Source of the DNA: Candidatus Uhrbacteria bacterium
GTDB lineage: Bacteria > Patescibacteriota > Patescibacteriia > JACQRZ01
Reading direction: 5' to 3'
NCBI GenBank assembly: GCA_016206155.1
Contig: JACQSC010000006.1
Span: 1-52,567 of the forward strand
DNA: 52,567 bases
A program made the translations under genes and the position numbers. Every line of letters starts with the position of its first letter. The stretch's first letter is position 1. Under the pieces are notes generated by a model that saw only the letters and a program-made list of their open reading frames with translations, made no database searches and was not told the origin of the DNA. This document shows positions 1-12,041 of the stretch, one piece after another.

Positions 1-183
1 GGCATCATGTCTTGGATCATCAGAAAAGCCAGTTTCAATTAAAGCGGCTGCCCTTCTTTTTTCCTCAGCTTGCTCCGAGGTTAATCTTCCTGAAGCCTCC
101 ATTTTAACGAGCTCGTCATTTAGAGCTTTTTGAAATATATCCTTTGGCTGTTCTTGTGGTACTGGTGGTTGTTCAAAATTCAT
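1..183 (-). CDS. Hypothetical protein, 5' part only (MNFEQPPVPQEQPKDIFQKAL...); probable gene of a second integron cassette
   Basis: ATG at 183-181 with an open frame to the window edge. It follows an AT-rich leader that starts at the R' box of the attC-like site. Confidence 0.7.
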   Translation of the reverse strand, partial: MNFEQPPVPQEQPKDIFQKALNDELVKMEASGRLTSEQAEEKRRAAALIETGFSDDPRHDA

Positions 184-282
184 AGTTTTGTGTGATTAAT
201 TGATTATTATTTTCAAGTTATTCCGACCCCGAAAATTGCCAAAAAATTAAAATATAAATTGAGAGAGATTTTTGACTATTTC

Positions 283-409
283 CGATAACGTTCCTGCGTA
301 TGCGATGTTTGCCAGTGGTATAATTGCACGAAGTGCTTACCACTGGCAAATATGGGTGGAGGCTTGCGGAGGTACGGAGCAAGCCGTAACCGCATACGCA
401 GTGTTAGCT
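283..409 (-). mobile_element. attC-like recombination site
   Basis: Minus strand reads AGCTAAC-ac-TGCGTATGCG...CGCATACGCA-ggaac-GTTATCG (R''/R' boxes plus a 10-bp perfect inner stem at 295-304/391-400). The interior is branched, with hairpins at 308-320/338-350 and 361-367/379-385. Confidence 0.8.
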
Positions 410-478
410 GATGTATTCCTTTTCTTTTCCGACGATAGTCGGTTGTTTTAAAAATTTTCAAATTTCTTTTTCCGTTTT
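403..478. repeat. Left ~76-bp terminal inverted repeat of the 6-kb cassette (partner 6367-6443)
   Basis: GTTAGCT-gatg-TATTCCTTTTCTTTT-[CCGACGATAGTCGG]-TTGTTTTAAAAATTTTCAAATTTCTTTTTC aligns with the reverse complement of 6367-6443. Confidence 0.9.
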
Positions 479-591
479 GGGTGGCGGGCAGAGGGGAATT
501 AAAGGGGTGAATGCCCGCCACCCAAAACACTTATTCCTGGTTTGGGGAAGGGGCAAGAGGGGCTGGGGGTGAATTGCCCCTTCCCCAAACA
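474..591. repeat. Two tandem 17-bp perfect hairpins with related G-rich loops
   Basis: Arms at 474-490/512-528 and 540-556/575-591. Loops are GAGGGGAATTAAAGGGGTGAA and GAGGGGGCTGGGGGTGAA. Confidence 0.9.
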
Positions 592-593
592 TT

Positions 594-1562
594 TTATTCT
601 ACATCTTTTATTGATTGGAGGTCGATTTCCTTATTTCCAACCACGAGATTCTTTTTTGCAACCCATGTGAATCCTTTTTCTGGTGTGATAACAGCTACAT
701 CAACAGGACCGCCTACGCCTGGCATGTCGCCTGGGTCAAGGAGAATGCCGTCAGAAAATCTTTGTATAGCATTTGTTGTTTCGATTGATAGAACGCTAAA
801 ATCAATGCCATCTTGAAGAGTCATTGTTCCCCATTGAATATTATACTCTAGGGCTCCGAGTTGTTGTTTGACTCCTTGTTCTGTGAATTTTTGCGTAGCT
901 TCTTGTAGCATTGGAAGATTTCCCATCCGTGGGTCGAAGCCTAGGACGATTCTAGTCAAAACATCAGTTTGACCAATCCAACTAGCCCCATACTCTTTCC
1001 CTTTTTGTGTACTGTTTCTTAGCATTTCAACATCTCCAGGTACTGATACTTTGAAGGCTTGATGCGAATCATCACTGTTAAATCCTGAGACTATGAATTG
1101 TAGCTGATCGACATGTGCCATTCGTTCTTCTTCAATACCTTTTGGATTTTTGAATTTGAATTTTACTGCACCTTTTTCTTGTTTAATTTCTATGTCCTTA
1201 CAGCCTTGTCTTTCTAAATCAGCTCGAATTTGATCTGGTAACTTTTTTAGACCCTCTTTGTAATTGTACTTTTCTTCAAAGAAGTCTTGGAGTTTTTTGC
1301 TGATCTCTTCGATTGAGAGTTTTCGGATGTCGGCATGTTTTTTGAACTCTTCGATGAATCGGCTTACGTTTTTGAGCACGCCATTTTCTGGTAGAAAGGC
1401 CAGACCGGCGACTACTACTCCAACTTTTTTTCCGAGTTGAAATACTTTTGTTGCCGAGTCCGAGCCAATACGACTCATTCCTTTCATGTTTCTATAAGAT
1501 TGACGGCTATCAGCGGCTAATACCATTCCTTCAGGGGTGGTTGTGTTAATACAGAGACTCAT
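594..1562 (-). CDS. Proteasome-beta/HslV-like N-terminal-nucleophile (Ntn) hydrolase with Ser1
   Basis: N-terminus (M)SLCINTTTPEGMVLAADSR, downstream TKVF and VAG motifs, and C-terminal GGPVDVAVIT, all typical of the proteasome-type Ntn fold. Confidence 0.7.
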   Translation of the reverse strand: MSLCINTTTPEGMVLAADSRQSYRNMKGMSRIGSDSATKVFQLGKKVGVVVAGLAFLPENGVLKNVSRFIEEFKKHADIRKLSIEEISKKLQDFFEEKYNYKEGLKKLPDQIRADLERQGCKDIEIKQEKGAVKFKFKNPKGIEEERMAHVDQLQFIVSGFNSDDSHQAFKVSVPGDVEMLRNSTQKGKEYGASWIGQTDVLTRIVLGFDPRMGNLPMLQEATQKFTEQGVKQQLGALEYNIQWGTMTLQDGIDFSVLSIETTNAIQRFSDGILLDPGDMPGVGGPVDVAVITPEKGFTWVAKKNLVVGNKEIDLQSIKDVE

Positions 1563-1563
1563 A

Positions 1564-2199
1564 TTATTTTGATAGGTTAGTGATAATATAAATGGTGAAT
1601 AATAACGTACATGTTGCGATTATTGCCTTGTACTCTGGACCCATAAAAAATACGGAAGAGCCGAGTAAAACGATCGCACTTATTGTTAGTTCAGATTGCT
1701 TGTTTGCGGGGATATTTTTTAGGAGATCCAGTATCGGCGTTTTTTGGTGTGTGTACTTTTCTAAGGCAAGATTGATATAGCTCTGGACGATGTTTTGAAG
1801 TGTGTTGCTATCGAACTGTGTTCCCTCGATTTTAATCCTTGATTCGGCGTTATCCACACTATGGATTGGAGGAGTTAAGTTATTTTGGGGGCTACTTTCG
1901 CCCGTGAAGGTAAGGTTATTTGCAAATGATGTTTTGCTCGTATCGCCGACGATGGTATACGTTTCGAGTGGCTGTAATCCCAACTCTTTCAAAGCTCTAT
2001 AAGTCGGGATAACAGAACTGGTTTTAGCGCCTATTTGCGCAAGGTAGCCTTTCTTTACTAGCGATTCAATAGCCCTGAGAACGGAATTGTTGGCCGCCAC
2101 TTTAATTCCCTCAACCATTTCTCCCAATGTCGGAATAATGCCATTCTTTGCGTGGTATTTATGGATGAAAATAATTAGGTTTTTCTGATTCTCAGTCAT
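1564..2199 (-). CDS. LexA-type winged-helix DNA-binding protein with C-terminal transmembrane helices and no S24 peptidase domain
   Basis: MTENQKNLIIFIHKYHAKNGIIPTLGEMVEGIKVAANNSVLRAIESLVKKGYL matches the LexA DBD pattern, and there are two hydrophobic C-terminal segments. ATG 2199 is preferred over GTG 2223, which overlaps the predicted -10 region. Confidence 0.7.
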   Translation of the reverse strand: MTENQKNLIIFIHKYHAKNGIIPTLGEMVEGIKVAANNSVLRAIESLVKKGYLAQIGAKTSSVIPTYRALKELGLQPLETYTIVGDTSKTSFANNLTFTGESSPQNNLTPPIHSVDNAESRIKIEGTQFDSNTLQNIVQSYINLALEKYTHQKTPILDLLKNIPANKQSELTISAIVLLGSSVFFMGPEYKAIIATCTLLFTIYIITNLSK

Positions 2200-2221
2200 A
2201 ATGTCTTTTAAATCTGCATTC

Positions 2222-2251
2222 ACAATACACCGTTACTTTAGTAACGGTCAA
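2222..2251 (-). promoter_or_regulatory. Putative promoter (TTGACC-N18-TATTGT) overlapped by palindromic operator ACCGTTAC-N4-GTAACGGT
   Basis: Perfect 8-bp inverted repeat at 2229-2236/2241-2248, directly upstream of the LexA-like gene. Confidence 0.6.
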
Positions 2252-2260
2252 GTATTTTCC

Positions 2261-2269
2261 TGTGGATAA
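2261..2269 (-). promoter_or_regulatory. Perfect DnaA-box consensus (TTATCCACA)
   Basis: TGTGGATAA on the + strand in the res/LexA-like spacer. A second perfect copy lies at 1850-1858. Confidence 0.35.
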
Positions 2270-2281
2270 CTGAAAAATGGC

Positions 2282-4555
2282 TTATAAAGGCGTCAAATCC
2301 TTCAAAACCTCCTCCACATTCCCATTGTGCACCAAAAAGAAATGGAGTTTGCCCTTGCCGAGTTTTACCCATTCGTCGGCAATTTCTACTTTGTATCCGG
2401 TGTCCTCGTTGCTGATTCGGTCTTCGCCTTTCCATTCAAGGGCAACGATGTTTCCTTTTTTGGTGAGCCCAACAAAATCCGGGTAAAACTTGCCCTTTTT
2501 CCAGCCTTGAATAAAGAAAGGGTCTTGTTTTTCACGATTGCGAACCCAAAACTCAACATTCGGCAAGCTATCAAGGTCTAGACGTTCAACAAAACTCAAC
2601 TCCTCTTTGTTCAGCTTGTCGATTTTCTCGTAGTAATTTTTGTTGAACTCTTGCGGTATCTGCTCTTTGAGCGTGATTGTTTCCGGGAAGCTCTCAAATG
2701 TTTTGGTTGTAATCTTCTTTTTGGCTACAAGCTCGACAAAACGCTTTTTAGCATAGGCTTCAAGTACGCTGTTTATGGCCTCATTGAGTCGGTCGAGGAA
2801 TAAATACCGATTAACGGAAAGCTCAGCCAAAGATTTTTGCTTGAGTTGATAATCAACGGCTTTATCAATGAATTTTACCTTGTTCGGTTTATCGAGCAGG
2901 GTGAAGCGGAGCTTTTTATCAAGCCACTGCACCAACTCTTGTTTTGAAAAATTTTTGTCTCGGTAGGTTAGATTGAGAATTTGCTGTTTGCCTTTGTGCC
3001 ATTTGTTATCGTCTTCAATATCAATAATCGCTCGGCCGTCATTGTCGTAGTGGATTTCAAAGTCAAATTCGGCGTTTTGTTTTGCCAGTTCAAAATCTTC
3101 GCCAATCAGTTCCTCAAAAGTCAGTTTTTCGTCTTCCAAGCTCATCATCGGCACTGCAAAATCCTTTTTCACAGCGCGGTTTACTTCTTTTGGGTCTTTT
3201 GCGGTGTCTCCGTTTGATGAAGCGCCGATTAAATCCAGTTTACTGTATCCGTTTCTTTCCAGTCCTGAAATGATGTTGCTTGCCGCTTCATTGAAGTTTT
3301 TGGCGGAAGCAAAAATGTAAGAGCGGTTTAATGCCTCGTTTTTCTTTCGCTTGGCATACGGCATGCGAATAATACGCCCGATGATCTGCTCGACAGCAAT
3401 TTTTGCCCCGACATTGGCAACGGAAATGAGAACATAGGCAAAGGAACAGTCCCAACCCTCGGCGAGCGCACTAACGGTTATAATGTAGCGGATTTTGCAT
3501 TTTTTGCTGAACAAGTCTACGCCCTCAAGGTCGTTTCGGTCGGATGTTTTGATCGCAATTTCTTCTTCGGAGATTTTGGCGGAAAGCAAATACGCTTTGA
3601 TCTGTTCAACCGTCACGTTGTTTTGCGTTTTGCTCTTTGGCTGGGCTTGAATTAAAGCAATTGGACGGATATATTCGCCTGTATTTTTCTTGCCCTCTTT
3701 TTCAAGGTCGGCTCGTTTTTCAAGCCCGCGAGCAACGGCGTTTTGCCATTGGGCGGAGCTTTCAAGCACAAGCGGAATTTTTACCATTTGTTCGTCTTTG
3801 AGTTCAGCAGGGGAAATGTCCACCAAAATATTACTGCCGGAGCGTGGCGTTGCCGTGTATTCAATTACGAAACTTGGATTTAGGCTGTTGAGAAAATCTA
3901 TTGAAAGCTCGGTTTTGGTTTTATGCCCCTCATCAATCACCACAAGCGGATTACTCATACGGACGACATTTGCGAGCGAGTTTATGATTGTGCCTTCCTC
4001 GTCTTTTTCCAGATCGTCTCGGTCATCAAGGTTTTCAAAGTGGCTCAAGAGTGCGCCGTTTTCCTGATAGACTTTGTATTTCTTTTGGAGTGTTTTTTCT
4101 TTGCGGAAAGCCTCCAAGCTGGAAATGATAATGCAAAGATTGTCCTGAACATCCTCTTTTCTGATTCGTAATGCTTCCTCGTTTGAAAAAATACGTACGC
4201 CTTTTTGAAAAGCCTCGTCCAAAATCTGCCTGTGCCAGTCGTTACGGTCTTTAAACTTCTTGAGCGTTTGGGTTTTGATTGCCTCGGACGGCACAAACCA
4301 CATCACAATACCTCTATCCATTTTGTGCTTGAGGAAAGAGCGCATGATTTCGTTGACGGAATGACAGCCGACAAGCGTTTTTCCTCCGCCAGTCGGAATT
4401 TTGACGCAAACGAAAGGCACATCACCGAAAAAGTCGCCGTGATATGGCCGGTCAGTTTCGCCCATGAACGCATATTTTGGCCCGACGGCCTCTATGCCTT
4501 TGAGATAAGCCTTGAGCTTGTCTAGCGCTGATTGTTGATATTTTTTGAGTTCCAT
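2282..4555 (-). CDS. res: Type III restriction enzyme Res subunit (SF2 helicase plus PD-(D/E)XK nuclease)
   Basis: Motifs PTGGGKT, DEGH, TATP, AEGWD, QIIGRIIR and C-terminal FYPDF...LEWKG. Lies directly downstream of mod. Confidence 0.88.
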   Translation of the reverse strand: MELKKYQQSALDKLKAYLKGIEAVGPKYAFMGETDRPYHGDFFGDVPFVCVKIPTGGGKTLVGCHSVNEIMRSFLKHKMDRGIVMWFVPSEAIKTQTLKKFKDRNDWHRQILDEAFQKGVRIFSNEEALRIRKEDVQDNLCIIISSLEAFRKEKTLQKKYKVYQENGALLSHFENLDDRDDLEKDEEGTIINSLANVVRMSNPLVVIDEGHKTKTELSIDFLNSLNPSFVIEYTATPRSGSNILVDISPAELKDEQMVKIPLVLESSAQWQNAVARGLEKRADLEKEGKKNTGEYIRPIALIQAQPKSKTQNNVTVEQIKAYLLSAKISEEEIAIKTSDRNDLEGVDLFSKKCKIRYIITVSALAEGWDCSFAYVLISVANVGAKIAVEQIIGRIIRMPYAKRKKNEALNRSYIFASAKNFNEAASNIISGLERNGYSKLDLIGASSNGDTAKDPKEVNRAVKKDFAVPMMSLEDEKLTFEELIGEDFELAKQNAEFDFEIHYDNDGRAIIDIEDDNKWHKGKQQILNLTYRDKNFSKQELVQWLDKKLRFTLLDKPNKVKFIDKAVDYQLKQKSLAELSVNRYLFLDRLNEAINSVLEAYAKKRFVELVAKKKITTKTFESFPETITLKEQIPQEFNKNYYEKIDKLNKEELSFVERLDLDSLPNVEFWVRNREKQDPFFIQGWKKGKFYPDFVGLTKKGNIVALEWKGEDRISNEDTGYKVEIADEWVKLGKGKLHFFLVHNGNVEEVLKDLTPL

Positions 4556-4557
4556 AA

Positions 4558-6201
4558 TTAGTAGACTTTAACTTCGTAAGGAATTTGCTTGAAGATGATG
4601 CTGTGTTTCGCAAGTGTTGCCTCATCAAGCAAACATTTGTCGGCGTAAATTACTTTTGTGCCGTCGGTTTTTCGTAGCTTTTTCAAAAAGGATTTACTCA
4701 ATACATTTTCGCCCTTTTCTTTGTAGATCAGATAATACTCGGTTTCCGCATATTCGCCGATATAATTTCCCGATACTTTGGCAGGGTCTATGTTGGTTTG
4801 CGTTTCAGTAAAGTAAATGTAGGTTGCAAACTGGTCAAAGTCGCAAGTGTCCTCGATTTGACCTTCTTCATCAAAAAGTGGCTTGCTGAGTTCGCAATAC
4901 TCGAAGCCGTCGTCATATTTATTTTTCTGTATCGCATTTTTGATTCGGGTTGCCGTTATATCCTTCGCAATGTGATCTTCCATTTCAATAAGAATAAATT
5001 TTCTGGTTCCGCCGTCTTCCTTGTTTAAATCTAAAACTGCGTGACCTGTACTTCCAGAGCCAGCAAAAGAGTCTAAAATTATTTCATCTTCACCGCTTGT
5101 AGCAACCTTCAGAAGATGTTTAAGAAATGCGATTGGCTTTTTACCACTTCTAAAGTCAACACCACCTTCGTGTCGGCAATTACCAAAACTGTCTGCGAAA
5201 TTTTCAAAATTGACTATTGGAGCAAAGCGTTCGTTATCATCAGGATTTTCTAAAACTCTACTTGGTACGCCTTGATAGTACTTTCCTTTCGTTGCCCCGT
5301 CTCTTTTTGGGCCGGTGAAGTATCTATAATCAAACTGATCGTTCCCAATGCCGTAGACTTTATAGAGTACCCCAAGCCCATCCGCTTTGTATCTCCCAGC
5401 TAAATGATCTCTAAAGAAACGGCCTGATGAATTTATATCAAGAACTTTTCCAGTTGCCCAAATTTCCTTCAAACCTTTTTCTGATGGTTCGCCTTTTACG
5501 ATTTTGTAATCGTCTTTTTGAAAAATGGCGACTTTTTTCCCGCCCAAGTTTACAAATTTTGGCTCATTTATTTCTTCAATTTTCCAAATGAATTTATCAA
5601 GGCTGTAATCAATTTTTTGTTTGATTAATGTGGCTTTTGGGCTTTTTCTGTAAACCAAAGCAGTTTCAATAATTATTTGAAAGTCCGAATCTTCTACAAG
5701 TGTTTTTCCTGGATAGCGAACTTGATAGTAAAAGGGATACAAAAAATTTTCTTCACCGAAAATTTCGTCACACAATAGTTTTAAGGTTGACGCTTCGTTG
5801 TCATCTATACTTATAAAAATAAGACCATCTTCTCTCAAAAGTTCCCGTAGTAACTTTAGACGAGGATACATCATGCAAAGCCACTTGTCGTGTCTGCATA
5901 AATCTTCAGATTCTCTGCCCACGACTTTTCCAAGCCATTTCCGAATTTTTGGTGAATTTACTTTGTCATTATAAACCCACTGTTCGCTTCCTGTATTGTA
6001 TGGCGGATCAATGTAAATACATTTAACTTTGCCTGTATAATATGGCATTAGTGCTTTTAGGGCTTGCAGATTGTCGCCGTGCAAAATGAGATTTTGAGAA
6101 TTACCTACGGAAGCGGACTTAACTTTTTTGAGTAATCGAAAAGGAACCTCTTTGTCGTGGTTTACTACTGCTTCTTTTCCAATCCAGTTTAGTGTAGGCA
6201 T
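4558..6201 (-). CDS. mod: Type III R-M DNA adenine methyltransferase (Mod)
   Basis: GDNL...YIDPPYNTG (motif IV) precedes [10 protein letters not shown] (motif I), the beta-class order. Confidence 0.92.
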
Positions 6202-6255
6202 AAGCGTTTATCGTTTTTATTTCTGTTGTATTATAGCGCGTTAGCACTTCATATT

Positions 6256-6365
6256 AAATAAGGTTTTCGGAGCGACCAGCGGGAGCGGAGAAAACATCCT
6301 TATATTCCCCTCATCAAATAAATCGTTTCCGCAGTGTAGCGGAGGAAACACCATATTTCCCCTTA
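6256..6365. repeat. Two tandem imperfect hairpins, each followed by TATWTTCCCCT-like sequence
   Basis: AATAAGGTTTTC...GAAAACATCCTTATATT-CCCCT and AAATAAATCGTTTCCGC...GCGGAGGAAACACCATATTT-CCCCT. Confidence 0.6.
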
Positions 6366-6366
6366 T

Positions 6367-6443
6367 AAAATAGAAAAAGAAATTTGAAAATTTTTTAAAA
6401 CAAATGGGCGAAGCCCAAAAAGAAAAGGAATATTTTAGCTAAC
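6367..6443. repeat. Right ~77-bp terminal inverted repeat of the cassette (partner 403-478)
   Basis: Reverse complement is GTTAGCT-aaaa-TATTCCTTTTCTTTT-[TGGGCTTCGCCCA]-TTTGTTTTAAAAAATTTTCAAATTTCTTTTTC. Confidence 0.9.
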
Positions 6444-6460
6444 TCGTATTTATACGAAAT
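6432..6460 (-). mobile_element. attI-like site, crossover G|TTAGCT at 6443/6442
   Basis: Minus strand ATTTCGTATAA-ATACGAG-TTAGCTAAAAT has the TAA-N7-TTA simple-site geometry of attI1. It lies ~100 bp upstream of the divergent integrase. Confidence 0.7.
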
Positions 6461-6483
6461 AAGTGATAAAATATGATGAATAT

Positions 6484-6512
6484 TTGTACATTATCTGAAC
6501 TTATTGTATAAT
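6484..6512 (+). promoter_or_regulatory. Sigma70-type promoter for the integrase
   Basis: TTGTAC-N17-TATAAT, 30 bp before ATG 6543. Confidence 0.65.
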
Positions 6513-6542
6513 CATACTATTCGACATTAGCATCAATATATC

Positions 6543-7370
6543 ATGGATGATGCCAGCATACAACAGGCGCTCCGGCAGACCGATGACCTTCTACGATTAC
6601 GGAATTACAGCCGCAGGACGCGAGATGCGTACCAGAATTGTTTACGCGCCTACCTTCGTCACAAAGACGCATCAGCGCAGGTATGTAGTCCCGAGAATGT
6701 GGGAGCTTTTTTGATGGCTCTTTATGATCGCGGGGCGGCTTCGCAGACGGTTACGCTTCATTTTCATGCTATCCGTTTCTACTATCGCGACGTACTTGGA
6801 CAGACGGTTCATATTCCATGGAAAACACCCAAACGCCCACAACGCTTGCCAGTTATTCTTTCGCGCGATGAAGTCGAACACCTTCTTAGTGTTGTTAAAA
6901 ATAAAAAACATTATCTCGTCCTTGCGCTTTCCTACGGCGCCGGTTTGCGCGTCAGTGAAGCGATTAGTCTTCATGTAGGTGATATTGATCTCGATGAACT
7001 TGTTGTCACCATTCGACAATCAAAGGGGAGGAAAGATCGTCGTACCGTGTTGCCCGAGAAATTAAAAAACGATCTGCGCTCGCTGATAGCCGGACGTGAG
7101 TCACATGAATATCTTTTTGAAAGCAATCGCGGTGGGAAATTACATGAACGCAGTGCGCAAAAACTGTTTGATGATTCCCTGAAATCCTCGGGCATCAAAA
7201 AAGATGCCTCATTCCACTCCCTCCGACATTCATTCGCGACACATTTGCTGGAAAATGGCGTGGACGTTCGCTACGTGCAGGAGCTCCTCGGTCATGCGAA
7301 TATCCGCACGACGCAAATCTATACTCATCTTACGAATCCAGCATTGAAAAATATCAAAAGCCCGCTATGA
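6543..7370 (+). CDS. Integron-integrase-like tyrosine recombinase, short form without the I2 insertion
   Basis: SAM-like N-terminus (LRNYSRRT...Y), LPVILS, YGAGLRVSE, KGRKDR, HSLRHSFATHLLE, LLGH...TTQIYTH and C-terminal SPL. All catalytic R-K-H-R-H-Y residues are present. Confidence 0.88.
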   Translation: MDDASIQQALRQTDDLLRLRNYSRRTRDAYQNCLRAYLRHKDASAQVCSPENVGAFLMALYDRGAASQTVTLHFHAIRFYYRDVLGQTVHIPWKTPKRPQRLPVILSRDEVEHLLSVVKNKKHYLVLALSYGAGLRVSEAISLHVGDIDLDELVVTIRQSKGRKDRRTVLPEKLKNDLRSLIAGRESHEYLFESNRGGKLHERSAQKLFDDSLKSSGIKKDASFHSLRHSFATHLLENGVDVRYVQELLGHANIRTTQIYTHLTNPALKNIKSPL

Positions 7371-8278
7371 CGCACCGCATCATCTTTATGGGAACTCCCG
7401 ATTATGCAGCTCAATATCTTGAGGGATTGATTTTTTCTGGCTACAAACCGATTGCCGTTATCACCCAGCCGGATAGGCCAGCGGGGCGCGCGCAAACCGT
7501 TGAGGCAACGCCCGTAAAACGCACTGCAGAGAGAAATAATATTCCCGTCCATCAGCCAGAGGATATTCGCGATCCTCAATGGACAAAAAAGATTCAAGAA
7601 CTCAAACCCGACCTTATTGTTGTCGTAGCCTTTGGTCAAATCATTCCCCAATCAATCCTGACTATCCCGTCAAAAGGGTGTATCAATGTTCATCCCTCGC
7701 TCCTTCCCCGCCATCGCGGCGCAACGCCGTGGCAGGAAACAATTTTGCAGGGCGATGCAACAACCGGTGTCACCATTATGCTTATGGATGAGAAAATGGA
7801 TCACGGCCCGATTCTGTCACAAGAAGGGGTCGACGTCGCTCCTGACGAGACGACGAAATCGCTTGAGGACAAAACAGCCGCTATTGGCATTCCCCTTCTC
7901 ATCGGCACGCTTACGCGGTGGTTTGCGGGAACTGTCACCCCTGCAGAGCAACATCACGACCAGGCGACATATACACGACTGCTAAAAAAGGAATCGGGAC
8001 GAATTGATTGGTCAAAATGTCCCGTTGAGATCGATCGTATGATCCGTGCGCTCAACCCTTGGCCGGGCGCCTGGACCGAGTGGCATGGCAAGCGCATAAA
8101 AATTCTAAAAGCCCATCTCGATGAGCAGAACGATTTGATCGTCGATGAACTACAGCCGGAGGGGAAAAAATCAATGGATGCCAAAACCTTCAGGAATGGA
8201 TACTGTCAAGGCGCTCAGAAAGAACAGCCACTATCATCACTATTCCAATCCCAAGCGGATGGTTCAAGTAAGGAGTAA
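7367..8278 (+). CDS. fmt: Methionyl-tRNA formyltransferase
   Basis: IIFMGTPDYA, INVHPSLLPRHRGATP, MDHGPI, IRALNPWPGA. ATGA overlap with the integrase stop. Confidence 0.95.
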   Translation: MTHRIIFMGTPDYAAQYLEGLIFSGYKPIAVITQPDRPAGRAQTVEATPVKRTAERNNIPVHQPEDIRDPQWTKKIQELKPDLIVVVAFGQIIPQSILTIPSKGCINVHPSLLPRHRGATPWQETILQGDATTGVTIMLMDEKMDHGPILSQEGVDVAPDETTKSLEDKTAAIGIPLLIGTLTRWFAGTVTPAEQHHDQATYTRLLKKESGRIDWSKCPVEIDRMIRALNPWPGAWTEWHGKRIKILKAHLDEQNDLIVDELQPEGKKSMDAKTFRNGYCQGAQKEQPLSSLFQSQADGSSKE

Positions 8279-10607
8279 AGAAATGAATGACACTTAATGC
8301 GCCCATGCCATAGAGCAAACCTCTCATCAGTGTCGCTTCATGCGCTCTCCCTTTTTGAAAAAGGGTGCGCATCGTATCGGCTCCACGTATGCAGATTGCG
8401 GCGAGAAGAAACAGATACGCAAGGAGTCCCAAGAGTCCGAGTTTTAACCAAAGGTCGAAATACCCCCATTCAAAGGCGTAGGTGGTGTACGTTCCGCTCT
8501 CGTTTTGCAGGAGTACGCGCGGATCGCGTGACGTATAGGTGAGTGTTTTGCCAAAGCCATGTCCTAACAAGGGGGCTTTCTTGATTTCATCAAGCATGAT
8601 CGGCAAGAGGTTCCAGCGGCTTGCGGCTGCGGCTTCGCTCTCTATATCCTCAACGCGCTCGGTGAGCAGATCAACGGAAAATACGCCATCCCGAGACGGA
8701 AATGGAATTACCGATATCGCGAAGAGCGTCAGCAGTGCGCAAAAGATCCCACCAGCTCCAATGCCAAAAAATCTCACGACTGCCTTGGGCTCATTTTTTA
8801 TGAGTCCGAATATCCCGGCGGAAAAAAGCACAACCATCACAAAGACACCGAGCCAAAAACTGCGCGAAAAGCTCAATATGAGGGAAGCGATAGAGCCAAC
8901 AAGAAGAACACCAAGCCACATATACCGCTTTGCGATATCTCGTATAGAGAAACGCGCAAACCATGCGATATATGAGATGAGAATAAAAAAAAGAAGAACA
9001 ACATACATTTGGCTCTGAAAAAAGATACGATAGAGCGAGTCCATTTGCGTTAATTCACCAACACCGGTGCTCCGAATCCAGCGGTAGACAACCGTTAGGA
9101 TATCATCGCCAAATCCACGATGCCCCATCATATAAAAGATGACTAACACCTTAATGAGGCTCGCGCTCAGAGCGGCGGCGCCAATGGTCAAAAATCGTAT
9201 TATCTGCTCTCTGTGCCGGAGTGCGTCATACAGCACGGGCAGAATGAGAAAAAAGAACCACGCATTTGCATCCGCGAAGATGTACCCTGCGCCATTTCCA
9301 TTGCGAATCGCCTGGACAATGCCAATAAAAACCGCCACGCAAAGAAGAGCATACCAGCCGCGCAGCGACGCATGGCGCAGTGTCACGAGTGACTCACGAC
9401 TGTCCTTGCGGGGAAGATTGTCAATCACATATAAAAGCCACCCCGCAAAAACTGCGCCAAAAAGCACCATGCGCGCAGAGAGCCTCATGTCCCCCGCCAT
9501 CATGGAAAAGAGGTATCCTTTCGACCCTATGATCAATTCTGCAAAAAGGATGGCAACACCGTATTCCGGACGACGGTACGTGATGAGGAGTGTCGCGGCC
9601 GCAATAAATCCCAGCGTTAACGAATCAATGGGTCCGTAAAAATAACCGCCGAGCGAAAAAAGCTCGACTGCGATGATCGCGCACAGTGATCCAATAAACA
9701 GCCGTTTCTGATGAGAAAGTACAGGGACCGGATAGAGCGCGCGCGCCTGCTTCCCTTGTCGGATCAGCGATACCGCAGCATCCATAATGGCGCATACCCC
9801 AACCACGCTGTTCATGACACCCGCAGCAAGCAATCCTGTTGCACCACAATGCTTTTTGAGATACCGCGCGCAGCTTGTAAAAAAAAGGCGCTGCTTTTCA
9901 AGGATCCCCTTTTGCGCAAAACTTTTTCCGCTGTGATGCACGACATGAGTACGGGAAAGATAGACGGTCTTGTATCCTGCGTCATACACTCTTTTACATA
10001 AATCGACCTCGTCAAACCATAAAAAGAAACGTTCATCAAACGTACCCACCGTCTCAAGCGCTGACCGGCGAATCAACAATGCCGCACCATCGGGCTGCTC
10101 AACCTGCTGCTCGTCACGAGTATAATCAAAGTCATCAGCATAATAATTGGCGAGGGGTCTTGGAGCGACCTTCCGTATTTTAAACAGCACGCCTAGCTGT
10201 GATAGTGGCGTTGGAAATCGCTGAATTGATTGTTGGATGCTTCCGTCTGCGTTCTGAATCTGTGGAGCGACGATGCCGACATCCGTGCGCATGTCAAGAT
10301 AGGCAGTCAGTACGCTAACGGTACTTTTCGTGATTTCTGAGTCAGGGTTAAGAAGAAACACATACTCACCCGTGCTATGCTCTATTCCCTGATTACAGGC
10401 TGCGGCAAATCCTCGATTCTCTTTGTTTGCAATGAGTTTGACCTGACCAAACTTTTCCGCTACCATTGCACTGCTTCCATCAACAGAAGCGTTATCGATC
10501 ACAATCACTTCGTGCGGCATGTCTGCGCTATGATCAAAAATTGATCGAAGACAGCGTTCGAGCAATTCCCTAACATTCCATGATACGATAACAAATGATA
10601 CCTTCAT
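8190..10607 (-). CDS. GT2 glycosyltransferase fused to an O-antigen ligase/polymerase (Wzy_C-like) membrane domain
   Basis: N-terminal VIVSWN, DNASVDGS, LLNPDS, FDERFFLW. C-terminal multi-TM region with SFSRSFW and PLLGHGFG. Confidence 0.85.
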   Translation of the reverse strand: MKVSFVIVSWNVRELLERCLRSIFDHSADMPHEVIVIDNASVDGSSAMVAEKFGQVKLIANKENRGFAAACNQGIEHSTGEYVFLLNPDSEITKSTVSVLTAYLDMRTDVGIVAPQIQNADGSIQQSIQRFPTPLSQLGVLFKIRKVAPRPLANYYADDFDYTRDEQQVEQPDGAALLIRRSALETVGTFDERFFLWFDEVDLCKRVYDAGYKTVYLSRTHVVHHSGKSFAQKGILEKQRLFFTSCARYLKKHCGATGLLAAGVMNSVVGVCAIMDAAVSLIRQGKQARALYPVPVLSHQKRLFIGSLCAIIAVELFSLGGYFYGPIDSLTLGFIAAATLLITYRRPEYGVAILFAELIIGSKGYLFSMMAGDMRLSARMVLFGAVFAGWLLYVIDNLPRKDSRESLVTLRHASLRGWYALLCVAVFIGIVQAIRNGNGAGYIFADANAWFFFLILPVLYDALRHREQIIRFLTIGAAALSASLIKVLVIFYMMGHRGFGDDILTVVYRWIRSTGVGELTQMDSLYRIFFQSQMYVVLLFFILISYIAWFARFSIRDIAKRYMWLGVLLVGSIASLILSFSRSFWLGVFVMVVLFSAGIFGLIKNEPKAVVRFFGIGAGGIFCALLTLFAISVIPFPSRDGVFSVDLLTERVEDIESEAAAASRWNLLPIMLDEIKKAPLLGHGFGKTLTYTSRDPRVLLQNESGTYTTYAFEWGYFDLWLKLGLLGLLAYLFLLAAICIRGADTMRTLFQKGRAHEATLMRGLLYGMGALSVIHFFTPYLNHPLGIGIVMIVAVLSERLDSIHS

Positions 10608-11330: not shown

Positions 11331-12041
11331 TTTAATGCCATGTTTCTCCTGGACAATTTTTTTCCACTTCTCATATCGCTCAATCTGACCGATATGAATG
11401 CCCAGCAGATGCCATGGAATACGGTACATAATTTTTGGAAGCCACTTACTTCTGCCAACACGCACCTCCCTGTCCAAATTCTCACCAAGAGCAAACAACA
11501 CTTCCGGGATATACCATCCCTTTTTGCCGGCAAGGGTCATAGTAAGCCACACATCCCAATCCTGGAATTTCTCAATTGACGGATCAAATTCCGGGTGATC
11601 TCTTTTTCGCACAAGCGATGCGGTATTGATATAGTTCATATTTTTTAGCCGCTCAAGATCAAATGGATAGCTCCTAAATAGCTTACCCTGCCATTCGAAC
11701 GATGAATAGACAAAAGAACATTCCGGGTGCTCTTCAAGGGTGCGAAGCATTTTTCCCAAGCAATTCTTTTTCAAAACAATATCTGCGTCACAGACAAAAA
11801 CATATTCCCCATGGCAAGCCGCTACACCCTCATTTCTGCTTATCTGATTATCGAGATTTTTTTCATGCTTGATATAGGTGACTCGATCAAGGTACGGCTT
11901 GATCACCTCGTCCGTGTTATCTGTTGATCCATCGTTAATATAAATAACTTCAATATCCTTATAGGTTTGAGAAAAAATGCCGTCCAGTGTTCGTGGCAAA
12001 ACTTTTCCTTCGTTTAAAGCGGGGATAATTATAGAGATCAT
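11307..12041 (-). CDS. Glycosyltransferase family 2
   Basis: ISIIIPALNE, INDGSTD, CDAD, FQDWD. Confidence 0.9.
   Translation of the reverse strand: MISIIIPALNEGKVLPRTLDGIFSQTYKDIEVIYINDGSTDNTDEVIKPYLDRVTYIKHEKNLDNQISRNEGVAACHGEYVFVCDADIVLKKNCLGKMLRTLEEHPECSFVYSSFEWQGKLFRSYPFDLERLKNMNYINTASLVRKRDHPEFDPSIEKFQDWDVWLTMTLAGKKGWYIPEVLFALGENLDREVRVGRSKWLPKIMYRIPWHLLGIHIGQIERYEKWKKIVQEKHGIKEESRIKN

Follow-up and report, generated by a model that had tools for sequence, protein, structure and literature searches.

In sedentary chromosomal integrons, such as the superintegron of Vibrio cholerae, the recombinase gene is divergent from an array of co-oriented cassettes, which end in an imperfect AAC...GTT palindrome with a G|TT crossover, and the array contains HicA toxin cassettes, empty cassettes and defence cargo. 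According to the accessible part of the survey by Darracq et al. 2024 (10.1101/2024.07.02.601686), the defence systems carried by integrons have few components and are encoded by one or two short genes, their restriction-modification (R-M) systems are dominated by types II and IV, and CRISPR-Cas and BREX are absent from them. Here we analyze a stretch of 52,567 nucleotides (the whole of which is referred to below as the window) from Candidatus Uhrbacteria, a lineage of the candidate phyla radiation (CPR, Patescibacteria), which forms the start of contig C3 (JACQSC010000006.1) of a 0.91-Mb genome assembled in 10 contigs. Near its beginning lies a locus which shares with the sedentary integrons all the features of organization listed first, and differs from them in that its recombinase is devoid of the IntI-specific domain, its sites form three-way junctions with a 3-nt/1-nt bulge and a palindrome extended by ~75 nt, and its cassettes carry promoters of their own. 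In the interpretation that we regard as probable, the segment from 6442 to 289 is a single first-position cassette of a CPR integron-like platform, which is moved by the recombinase and holds a composite cargo of two units. With 6.15 kb, four genes, its own expression signals and a full-size type III R-M system, this cassette is an outlier relative to the integron defence cassettes reported in the accessible part of the above survey.

The cassette is read on the minus strand and comprises 6,154 nt. Its attI-side crossover is located at G6443|T6442, the minus strand from 6443 downward reading ...GAG|TTAGCTAAAATATTCC..., and its attC-side end is given by the R' box GTTATCG at 289–283. The attI junction is set by the comparison of three related genomes, the window, G255 and G326 (the integrases of the latter two being 91% and 85% identical to that of the window), which share the sequence beside the integrase up to 6443 and diverge beyond it, where each of them holds a different first cassette inserted at G|TT. 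The earlier note, made from the letters of this stretch, had placed the block at 290–6442; the block stands and the start was off by one, the true end being 289. Four co-oriented minus-strand open reading frames (ORFs) occupy positions 6201..594, and the ORF list, the family searches and a hydrophobic segment at the C-terminus of the third product (residues 191–210) bear out the order proposed in that note, which is mod, res, a gene for a LexA-like transmembrane protein and a hydrolase gene. The spacers are as short as had been claimed (2, 58, and 1 nt, the middle one being 82 nt if the LexA-type gene begins at ATG 2199), and the block is indeed richer in AT than its surroundings, with a GC content of 0.412 vs 0.484 for the genome, a value that places it among the lowest 1.9% when 1,712 segments of the same size are ranked. 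The features of the locus are collected in the table.

Table. Features of the cassette and its platform, with coordinates of the window
Feature	Position	Strand	Evidence or description
Start of next cassette	1..288	-	begins TTATCGGAAATAG...; ORF 183..1 leaves contig
attC-like site (R box, asymmetric bulge, L box, three-way junction)	283..409	-	fold; sole structural match in region
Trailer inverted-repeat arm, ends in R'' AGCTAAC (409–403)	403..478	-	inverted-repeat list, self-complementarity matrix
Two REP-like perfect 17-bp hairpins (474–528 and 540–590), 3' of last gene	474..590		fold -42.3 kcal/mol, z -8.4
Proteasome-beta-like hydrolase, 322 aa	594..1562	-	weak TIGR03634 match; nearest ESM Atlas clusters carry PF00227
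Membrane-anchored LexA-type winged-helix protein, 211 aa from ATG 2199	1564..2199	-	Pfam LexA_DNA_bind 27.3 bits (cut-off 23.7)
Putative internal promoter and operator region, TTGACC (2251–2246)-18-TATTGT (2227–2222)	2200..2281	-	promoter scan, 9/12 matches
res, type III restriction subunit, 757 aa	2282..4555	-	Pfam ResIII; PADLOC REase_III E 1.6e-84
mod, type III DNA methyltransferase, 547 aa	4558..6201	-	Pfam N6_N4_Mtase; PADLOC MTase_III E 6.7e-138
Inner leader, two copies of ~60-nt hairpin unit GGGG..ATA.GG-TGTTT(T/C)CTCCGC...GAAAAC, then promoter	6202..6366	-	sequence, promoter scan, seven-leader alignment
5' cassette end, G|TTAGCT crossover and leader inverted-repeat arm	6367..6443	-	inverted repeat of 403–478
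attI-like platform sequence, crossover to integrase start	6444..6542	-	kept in G255 (85%) and G326 (74%) up to ...AAC| at 6443/6444
Short IntI/Xer-like tyrosine recombinase, 275 aa, divergent from array	6543..7370	+	Pfam Phage_integrase E 3.3e-44

The site at the far end of the cassette (283–409) folds with -35.3 kcal/mol (z -7.1) into an ATAAC/GTTAG stem, a 3-nt/1-nt bulge, an 11-bp stem and a junction of two hairpins. A search of window positions 1–7000 with Rfam (E ≤ 1) gave just two chance-level matches and ARAGORN found no tRNA in the same segment, so that the structure matches no known RNA gene. In a scan of both strands for AAC...GTT boxes with an adjacent stem of at least 9 bp (perfect or with one mismatch, at most 260 nt, offsets allowed), this site was the only structural match in positions 1–6600, where shuffled sequences yield 2.6 matches. 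The statement that the block holds no internal attC is thereby upheld for sites of this description, the scanner having overlooked two array sites in which R' is ATT, and badly decayed sites could escape it as well. A strict scan of the genome returned five sites at the start of contig C1, that of the window, and five scattered others. When ten members of the site family from seven sources were aligned, 90.8% of the cells were paired vs 77.5% after shuffling (0 of 500 shuffles reached as high), slid-partner controls paired only 36–44% of the cells, and compensatory changes were present in 15 of the 34 pairs, seven of them within the ten pairs of the L-box stem. The folds and the covariation thus reveal the R''/R' and L''/L' boxes and the conserved structure of an attC, at site lengths of 95–205 nt.

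The platform on which these sites are found is integron-like but non-canonical. Its recombinase retains the core of the tyrosine recombinases, with GLRvsE, HsLRHsFATH and qiYTH being conserved relative to the integron integrase IntI4, and of the 401 genomes of the class, 157 contain homologues (E ≤ 1e-50), which are frequently located at the end of a contig. Counted over 20 loci chosen from longer contigs of other genomes, the attC-like sites are concentrated on the divergent side of the integrase gene, with 36 there as opposed to 3 on the opposite side and a single one within the gene. The cassettes are not promoterless, as the one described here and others in L014 and L018 carry conserved TATAAT promoters of their own. 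An array of the type that would continue the window is seen on contig C1 (positions 1–8400), where four near-identical 127-nt sites and several different ones delimit a cassette with a methyltransferase and ORFs without family (1590–4517), two "empty" cassettes, DUF805 and NUDIX cassettes, and a DUF7387-HicA pair. The methyltransferase cassette has the same trailer as that of the window and a leader of ~120 nt which is 85% identical; its designation as a type II R-M cassette was dropped, the methyltransferase alone having been identified among its products. No description of such arrays was found in the literature on integrons in CPR/Patescibacteria, supplements being outside the scope of that search.

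Several further observations concern the recombinase and its sites. The recombinase gene overlaps the start of fmt, which encodes methionyl-tRNA formyltransferase, by 4 nt (7367–7370), and may be cotranscribed with this housekeeping gene. On contig C1 (L001, 6757–7330), the DUF7387-HicA toxin-antitoxin pair is positioned between an R''/L'' half, GCCTAAC ACCGAATATC, and the matching L'/R' half, GATATTCGGATAC GTTATG, some 550 nt away, and the two genes appear to be enclosed in the variable loop of a single, very long attC-like site. A 150-nt palindrome with perfect ends on contig C8 (63981–64130) and a site with tandem TCGTAAC heptads on contig C5 (43848–43935) have arms (TAACTCGTAA...) that are similar to the attI core of the window, TAACTCGTAT, and may be secondary sites of the recombinase. 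Contig C5 also contains a second low-GC region (0.375–0.39, ~115000–125370), which is located at the contig end.

The first unit of the cargo, mod followed by res, has the gene order of the EcoP15I/EcoP1I-type systems. Mod is a β-class N6/N4 methyltransferase with a DPPY motif IV, a variable central target-recognition region and an FxGxG motif I, and Res combines SF2 helicase motifs with a C-terminal PD-(D/E)xK nuclease. Among five homologues, DPPY (65–68) and FAGSG are invariant in Mod, as are PTGGGKT, DEGH and P692-D693...E707-x-K709 in Res, and the center of Mod (approximately residues 153–375) is not alignable between any two of them, as would be expected of swapped target-recognition domains. 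Based on the families and the intact motifs, the R-M system is complete by sequence, in agreement with the claim of a complete type III system in the earlier note. It differs from known type III systems in its surroundings, being placed in a cassette with a LexA-like/proteasome-like pair, and in the size of Res, which has 757 residues vs the ~870–990 positions of the PADLOC profiles; a sequence search for Res among solved structures gave no match. The −10 box TATAAT reported before is present at 6235–6230 of the minus strand, with TTAATA located 16 nt upstream (6257–6230, 10 of 12 matches in the promoter scan). As a class, promoter-like matches are not commoner than in shuffled sequences (12 vs 13.3), and the weight placed on the mod promoter comes from the conservation of GCTAAC/GGCGCTATAATAC in four type III loci. 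In an alignment of seven leaders, the window, L053, and L018 share the promoter block GCTAACGCGCTATAATAC, from which G187 departs by a single change, and the mod-res module is predicted to carry its own promoter.

The second unit is formed by the LexA-type gene and the hydrolase gene. The former is listed as ORF 2223..1564 and most likely begins at ATG 2199, because all homologues in an 11-homologue alignment begin there. Its product shows no match to the S24 peptidase and is therefore not a full LexA repressor. Between the hexamers of the internal promoter lies a perfect palindrome, CCGTTACTAAAGTAACGG (2247–2230), the putative operator of a self-repressed LexA-type promoter, and this promoter region is located directly 3' of the leader in L013, with a related repeat in L014. 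Like the R-M controller (C) proteins and the LexA-type repressors, the protein is a small helix-turn-helix protein which is encoded with an R-M system and has a palindromic putative operator in its own promoter. It differs from these in having a membrane anchor and a separate protease-like partner, in lacking the S24 self-cleavage domain, and in that it accompanies five different R-M types, on either side of them; its link to the regulation of mod-res is conjectural.

The 322-residue partner is probably an Ntn hydrolase, as judged from its PF00227 neighbors in the ESM Atlas and its weak proteasome-β matches, so that the assignment made in the earlier note holds as a probable one, short of proof. 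M1, S2, D18, and K39 are invariant in 15 homologues, and the enzyme would employ Ser2, Asp18, and Lys39, which we take to be equivalent to Thr1, Asp17, and Lys33 of the proteasome β subunits. Sequence searches against solved structures gave weak and mostly irrelevant matches, an AlphaFold model from a 15-row alignment had a mean pLDDT of 44.5, too low for use, and a predicted complex of residues 1–165 of the LexA-type protein with the hydrolase scored 0.00, which speaks neither for nor against binding. Among described proteins, it is best compared with the PMI-type proteasome homologues, characterized in the accessible part of the work of Fuchs, Alva and Lupas 2021 (PMC8665760) as a stand-alone proteasome-β-like core with large insertions which occurs in bacteria and archaea. 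The hydrolase likewise stands alone, with no partner ATPase, and is probably of the PMI type with Ser2 as nucleophile, a candidate label given by analogy. Unlike those homologues, the CPR copy is always found 3' of a membrane-anchored LexA-type gene, as was seen from a metagenome scan with the hydrolase, which returned 41 loci, 14 of them with a CPR-type gene (at least 64% identical): the LexA-type gene is directly upstream in all 12 of the CPR-type loci with enough upstream sequence. R-M genes adjoin the pair in 8 of the 10 CPR-type loci with enough flank (two of these, L016 and L017, look like one sequence), the exceptions being L019 and L021; they are type III in three loci, and TdeIII, MvaI/BcnI, and two other methyltransferase-led sets in five. 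The pair probably regulates or guards R-M systems. More distant relatives of the hydrolase (53–57% identity, L023–L048) have archaeal-looking neighbors, such as hisF-like and malic-enzyme-like genes, and inspection of 10 of the 24 such loci revealed neither LexA-type nor R-M genes next to them. The presence of the CPR copy in a pair and of the archaeal-type relatives alone hints at a transfer between domains. As a separate observation, L016 (2558–5606) holds a cassette with a Peptidase_S24 (LexA/UmuD-type) protein and a 784-aa fused type I-like methyltransferase-specificity protein.

The block of mod, res, LexA-like and hydrolase genes recurs in other arrays with its ends at the att crossover and with Res proteins that are 92–94% identical, so that the search for the same block at other array positions, proposed at the outset, had a positive outcome. 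The cassette is the first of the array in the window, the second in L053 and the third in L018. In L053, the start of the integrase gene, attI and one small cassette are followed by the four-gene cassette, which opens with G|TTAGCTGAAATATTCC directly after an attC and has a leader that is 82% identical. In L018, an integrase with 52% identity and two small cassettes precede the four-gene cassette (4473–10438; Res 92.6%), which runs from G|TTAAGT... to the attC-like site ending at 10438 and thus lies between two attC-like sites. The res, LexA-like and hydrolase genes are also found together in L020, on a short contig where the array position is not visible. Within the class, Res homologues occur in 6 and the hydrolase in 2 of the 401 genomes, so that the cargo is patchily distributed.

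Two loci point to the origin of the composite. In L013, the leader (corresponding to window 6443–6251) is joined directly to the equivalent of window 2277–593, i.e. the spacer and the LexA-like and hydrolase genes, which are followed by an ORF without family and a type II-class methyltransferase, and then by the trailer and attC of the window (96% identical). Conversely, G187 (L008) shares with the window only positions 6274–2301, which comprise the end of the leader, mod and res (Res 87% identical), and the block is located there between a radical-SAM gene and rfbC, together with a DUF5677 gene and with no integrase within ~6 kb. Since mod-res is missing from the one and alone in the other, it appears to have joined the LexA-like/hydrolase cassette without the use of att sites, and the sequence comparison thus makes the cassette a composite, in which a promoter-bearing mod-res module is placed inside an older LexA-like/hydrolase cassette. 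In G187, the mod-res-DUF5677 insertion, which is outside any array, is flanked by a 28-nt direct repeat, GAGTTTTGGGAGGGGAAAGGGTAAAAT (6532–6560 and 11687–11715), with the left copy lying in the first codons of the radical-SAM (RlmN-like) gene and the right one being followed by GCAGTTAGCT.

The two promoters and the two evolutionary layers of the block could also be read as the result of a fusion of two or more cassettes, the attC that once separated res from the LexA-type gene having decayed beyond recognition, and the sites with R' = ATT that escaped the scanner may be counted in favor of this. It is nevertheless highly improbable, as the 58–82-nt spacer in question is filled by the promoter with its 18-nt palindrome, the same spacer directly follows the leader in L013 with no attC, and the mod-res junctions (~6251–6274 and 2277–2301) contain neither AAC/GTT boxes nor stems. 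We therefore retain the reading as a single cassette with a composite cargo.

To our knowledge, the complementarity of classical attC sites ends at the R boxes. In the cassette described here, it extends into the leader and trailer arms. In a test of self-complementarity, the first 90 nt of 11 cassettes from five sources were compared with the 90 nt before their own R''; the scores were 24–49 in 10 of the 11 cassettes, L014 being weak at 16, and did not exceed 17 against the ends of other cassettes, except among those with a common chassis. L018 carries the identical four-gene set between different arms, which are again self-complementary, indicating that it is the pairing and not the sequence of the arms that is conserved. 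The leader of the window is also present in L053, L013, contig C1, and L178, and its motif GTTTTAAAAA(N)TTTTCAAATTTCTTTT was found in at least 120 stretches of species-representative genomes, the record titles of which name many CPR lineages as well as Woesearchaeota, Altarchaeum and others, some of these titles looking unreliable. Of 80 loci taken from these matches, nine have both arms, 1.36–5.84 kb apart, with GTTAGCT...AGCTAAC ends and an attC core of the same family as in the window. A short integrase is visible at 16 of the 80, and in 6 of these 16 the motif is 140–320 nt from the start of its gene, oriented as in the window. The cargo was annotated in eight of the nine two-armed loci and consists of a type IIG-like enzyme; a 1,248-aa fused R-M enzyme with DUF6119; AAA_13, HpaII and a C5 methyltransferase; HaeIII, a C5 methyltransferase and ThsB-TIR; AAA_21 and RloB; two peptidases; a MacB-type ABC transporter; and an MFS transporter. 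These data suggest that the large four-gene cassette is not an isolated case in the lineage. Together with its recurrence in other arrays, they support the part of the earlier note in which whole multi-gene defence operons are shuffled by an integron; the notion of a canonical integron does not stand.

The repeats of ~75 nt at 403–478 and 6367–6443, which flank varied cargos in many taxa, would also be present in a transposon-like (MITE-like) carrier that inserts itself into GTTAGCT-type targets with no need for the neighboring recombinase. To this we assign hardly any probability. Profile searches found no transposase among the proteins of the block and there is no target duplication, every other cassette of the arrays has its own, different self-complementary ends, and, wherever both ends could be read, an attC core of one family comes after the trailer arm and a G|TT crossover after the leader arm, an arrangement that matches the circular permutation of an integron cassette rather than the layout of an element with terminal inverted repeats.

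Two additional elements accompany the ends of the cassettes. The ~60-nt unit of the inner leader (GGGG..ATA.GG TGTTT(T/C)CTCCGC ... CGGAAAAC hairpin, window 6260–6366) sits upstream of cassette promoters and is also found, in one or two copies, in the leaders of L013, L014, L018, L053, L001, and L008, in some of them together with an additional GGCTGTCTGGC..GCCAGCC hairpin; its role could be that of an insulator, of a terminator or of a binding site. The REP-like hairpins at the 3' end, with stems GTTTTGGG.../GTTTGGGG..., are present 3' of the cargo in L013, L014, L018, and C1, and truncated in G187.

In the mechanism that we propose for the cassette, the 275-residue recombinase would cut between G and TT in the R' box of a folded attC-like site and in attI, allowing whole cassettes to exit as circles and to re-enter at attI. 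In the circle, the first ~75 nt would pair with the ~75 nt before R'', converting the attC into a hairpin of ~270 nt, and this lengthened palindrome presumably aids folding and may help a large cassette to present its site. Of the two cargo units, the mod-res operon would be expressed from its own promoter and cut unmethylated foreign DNA, and the self-repressed pair, consisting of the membrane-anchored LexA-type DNA-binding protein and the proteasome-like hydrolase, travels with R-M systems and probably controls them or backs them up. Mod-res would have entered an existing LexA-like/hydrolase cassette by a route other than att recombination, and the whole would have moved as one piece since then.

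It has to be noted that a number of observations weigh against this interpretation, the first of which concern the recombinase itself. When aligned with IntI4 (PDB 2a3v), its residues 10–198 correspond to 6–199 and residues 199–275 to 241–317, so that ~41 residues of the chain (200–240), which contain the additional domain of some 35–40 residues between patches II and III that the classical IntI uses to read the folded attC, are skipped. It is for this reason that the platform is not a canonical integron, and both the activity of the enzyme on attC-like sites and its catalysis of the exchange are what we infer from its position and its relatives. With about one copy per genome and a gene that overlaps fmt, it could be a housekeeping Xer enzyme, i.e. 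the chromosome-dimer resolvase of the cell, in which case the arrays would depend on Xer in the manner of the pdif modules of Acinetobacter plasmids, and would not be relatives of integrons. The protein is Xer-sized and lacks the IntI insertion, and the scores of the XerA model (212 bits) and of the integron-integrase model TIGR02249 (224 bits in two stretches, cut-off 265) are similar and both below the cut-offs. Even so, we judge this to be unlikely, given that the sites are folded palindromes with covarying stems rather than a 28-bp duplex dif, that with few exceptions they are found on the divergent side of its gene (36 vs 3), and that the best solved relative is an integron integrase, IntI4.

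A second group of such observations concerns the mobility and the content of the cassette. The contigs of four public runs of one study, when compared with the window, showed no excision or insertion, and the one joint across the block, from 429 to 6418, is supported on its short side by just 26 letters and probably stems from a repeat. Contigs of the same study in which other sequence starts exactly at 6444 and at 285 may represent alternative crossover neighbors, a weak indication, as they may come from other organisms. Furthermore, the window begins at the end of a contig, so that the order of the array past position 1 is not assembled; L178, which has the leader, mod-res (Res 96.7%), an attI-like remnant and, in place of the LexA-like/hydrolase pair, another downstream gene, indicates that the four-gene content is not fixed; and mod-res homologues are found outside arrays with unrelated boundaries, in G187 and on a serine-recombinase island in G046 (Res 70% identical). 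Homologous blocks with other boundaries had been named in advance as evidence against the cassette, and they do exist for the mod-res module but were not found for the cassette as a whole. Finally, the accessible part of the survey cited above (10.1101/2024.07.02.601686) explains the small and streamlined form of integron cassettes, those for defence among them, by the poor recombination of long ones. This, and the lack of a usable joint in the contigs, would be consistent with the block being a fixed remnant, which entered as a cassette and is now an immobile island held in place by an addictive R-M system. R-M systems are able to stabilize their own loci. That explanation we deem improbable, as the cassette occupies three array positions in three arrays with its ends intact and with an intact integrase nearby (in L053, the view is limited to the first ~47 nt of the integrase gene), and as the same-study contigs diverge exactly at 6444 and 285, with the reservation on their origin given above.

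We therefore favor the movement of the four-gene block as one cassette, and the same cassette ends are found in many CPR genomes, and by record titles also in DPANN archaea, around further R-M and defence cargos of several genes. A tentative extension, which we put forward as a possibility short of being probable, is that the ~75-nt ends and the one family of attC cores constitute a heavy-load chassis, the ~270-nt hairpin of which in the circle lets a recombinase without the IntI domain shift multi-kb defence operons between CPR bacteria and DPANN archaea, with the LexA-type/hydrolase pair as a portable controller or guard of the R-M systems. If true, entire operons for R-M and other kinds of defence would be exchanged across the domains by such a system. 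The finding also provides an uncharacterized proteasome-like family with a repeatable genomic partner and context. If the interpretation of the locus as a single mobile cassette is correct, the size limit of integron-type capture would be wider than thought, the extended palindrome would offer a testable structural reason for this large capacity, and ultrasmall, phage-exposed organisms would have a route by which whole defence operons can be swapped.

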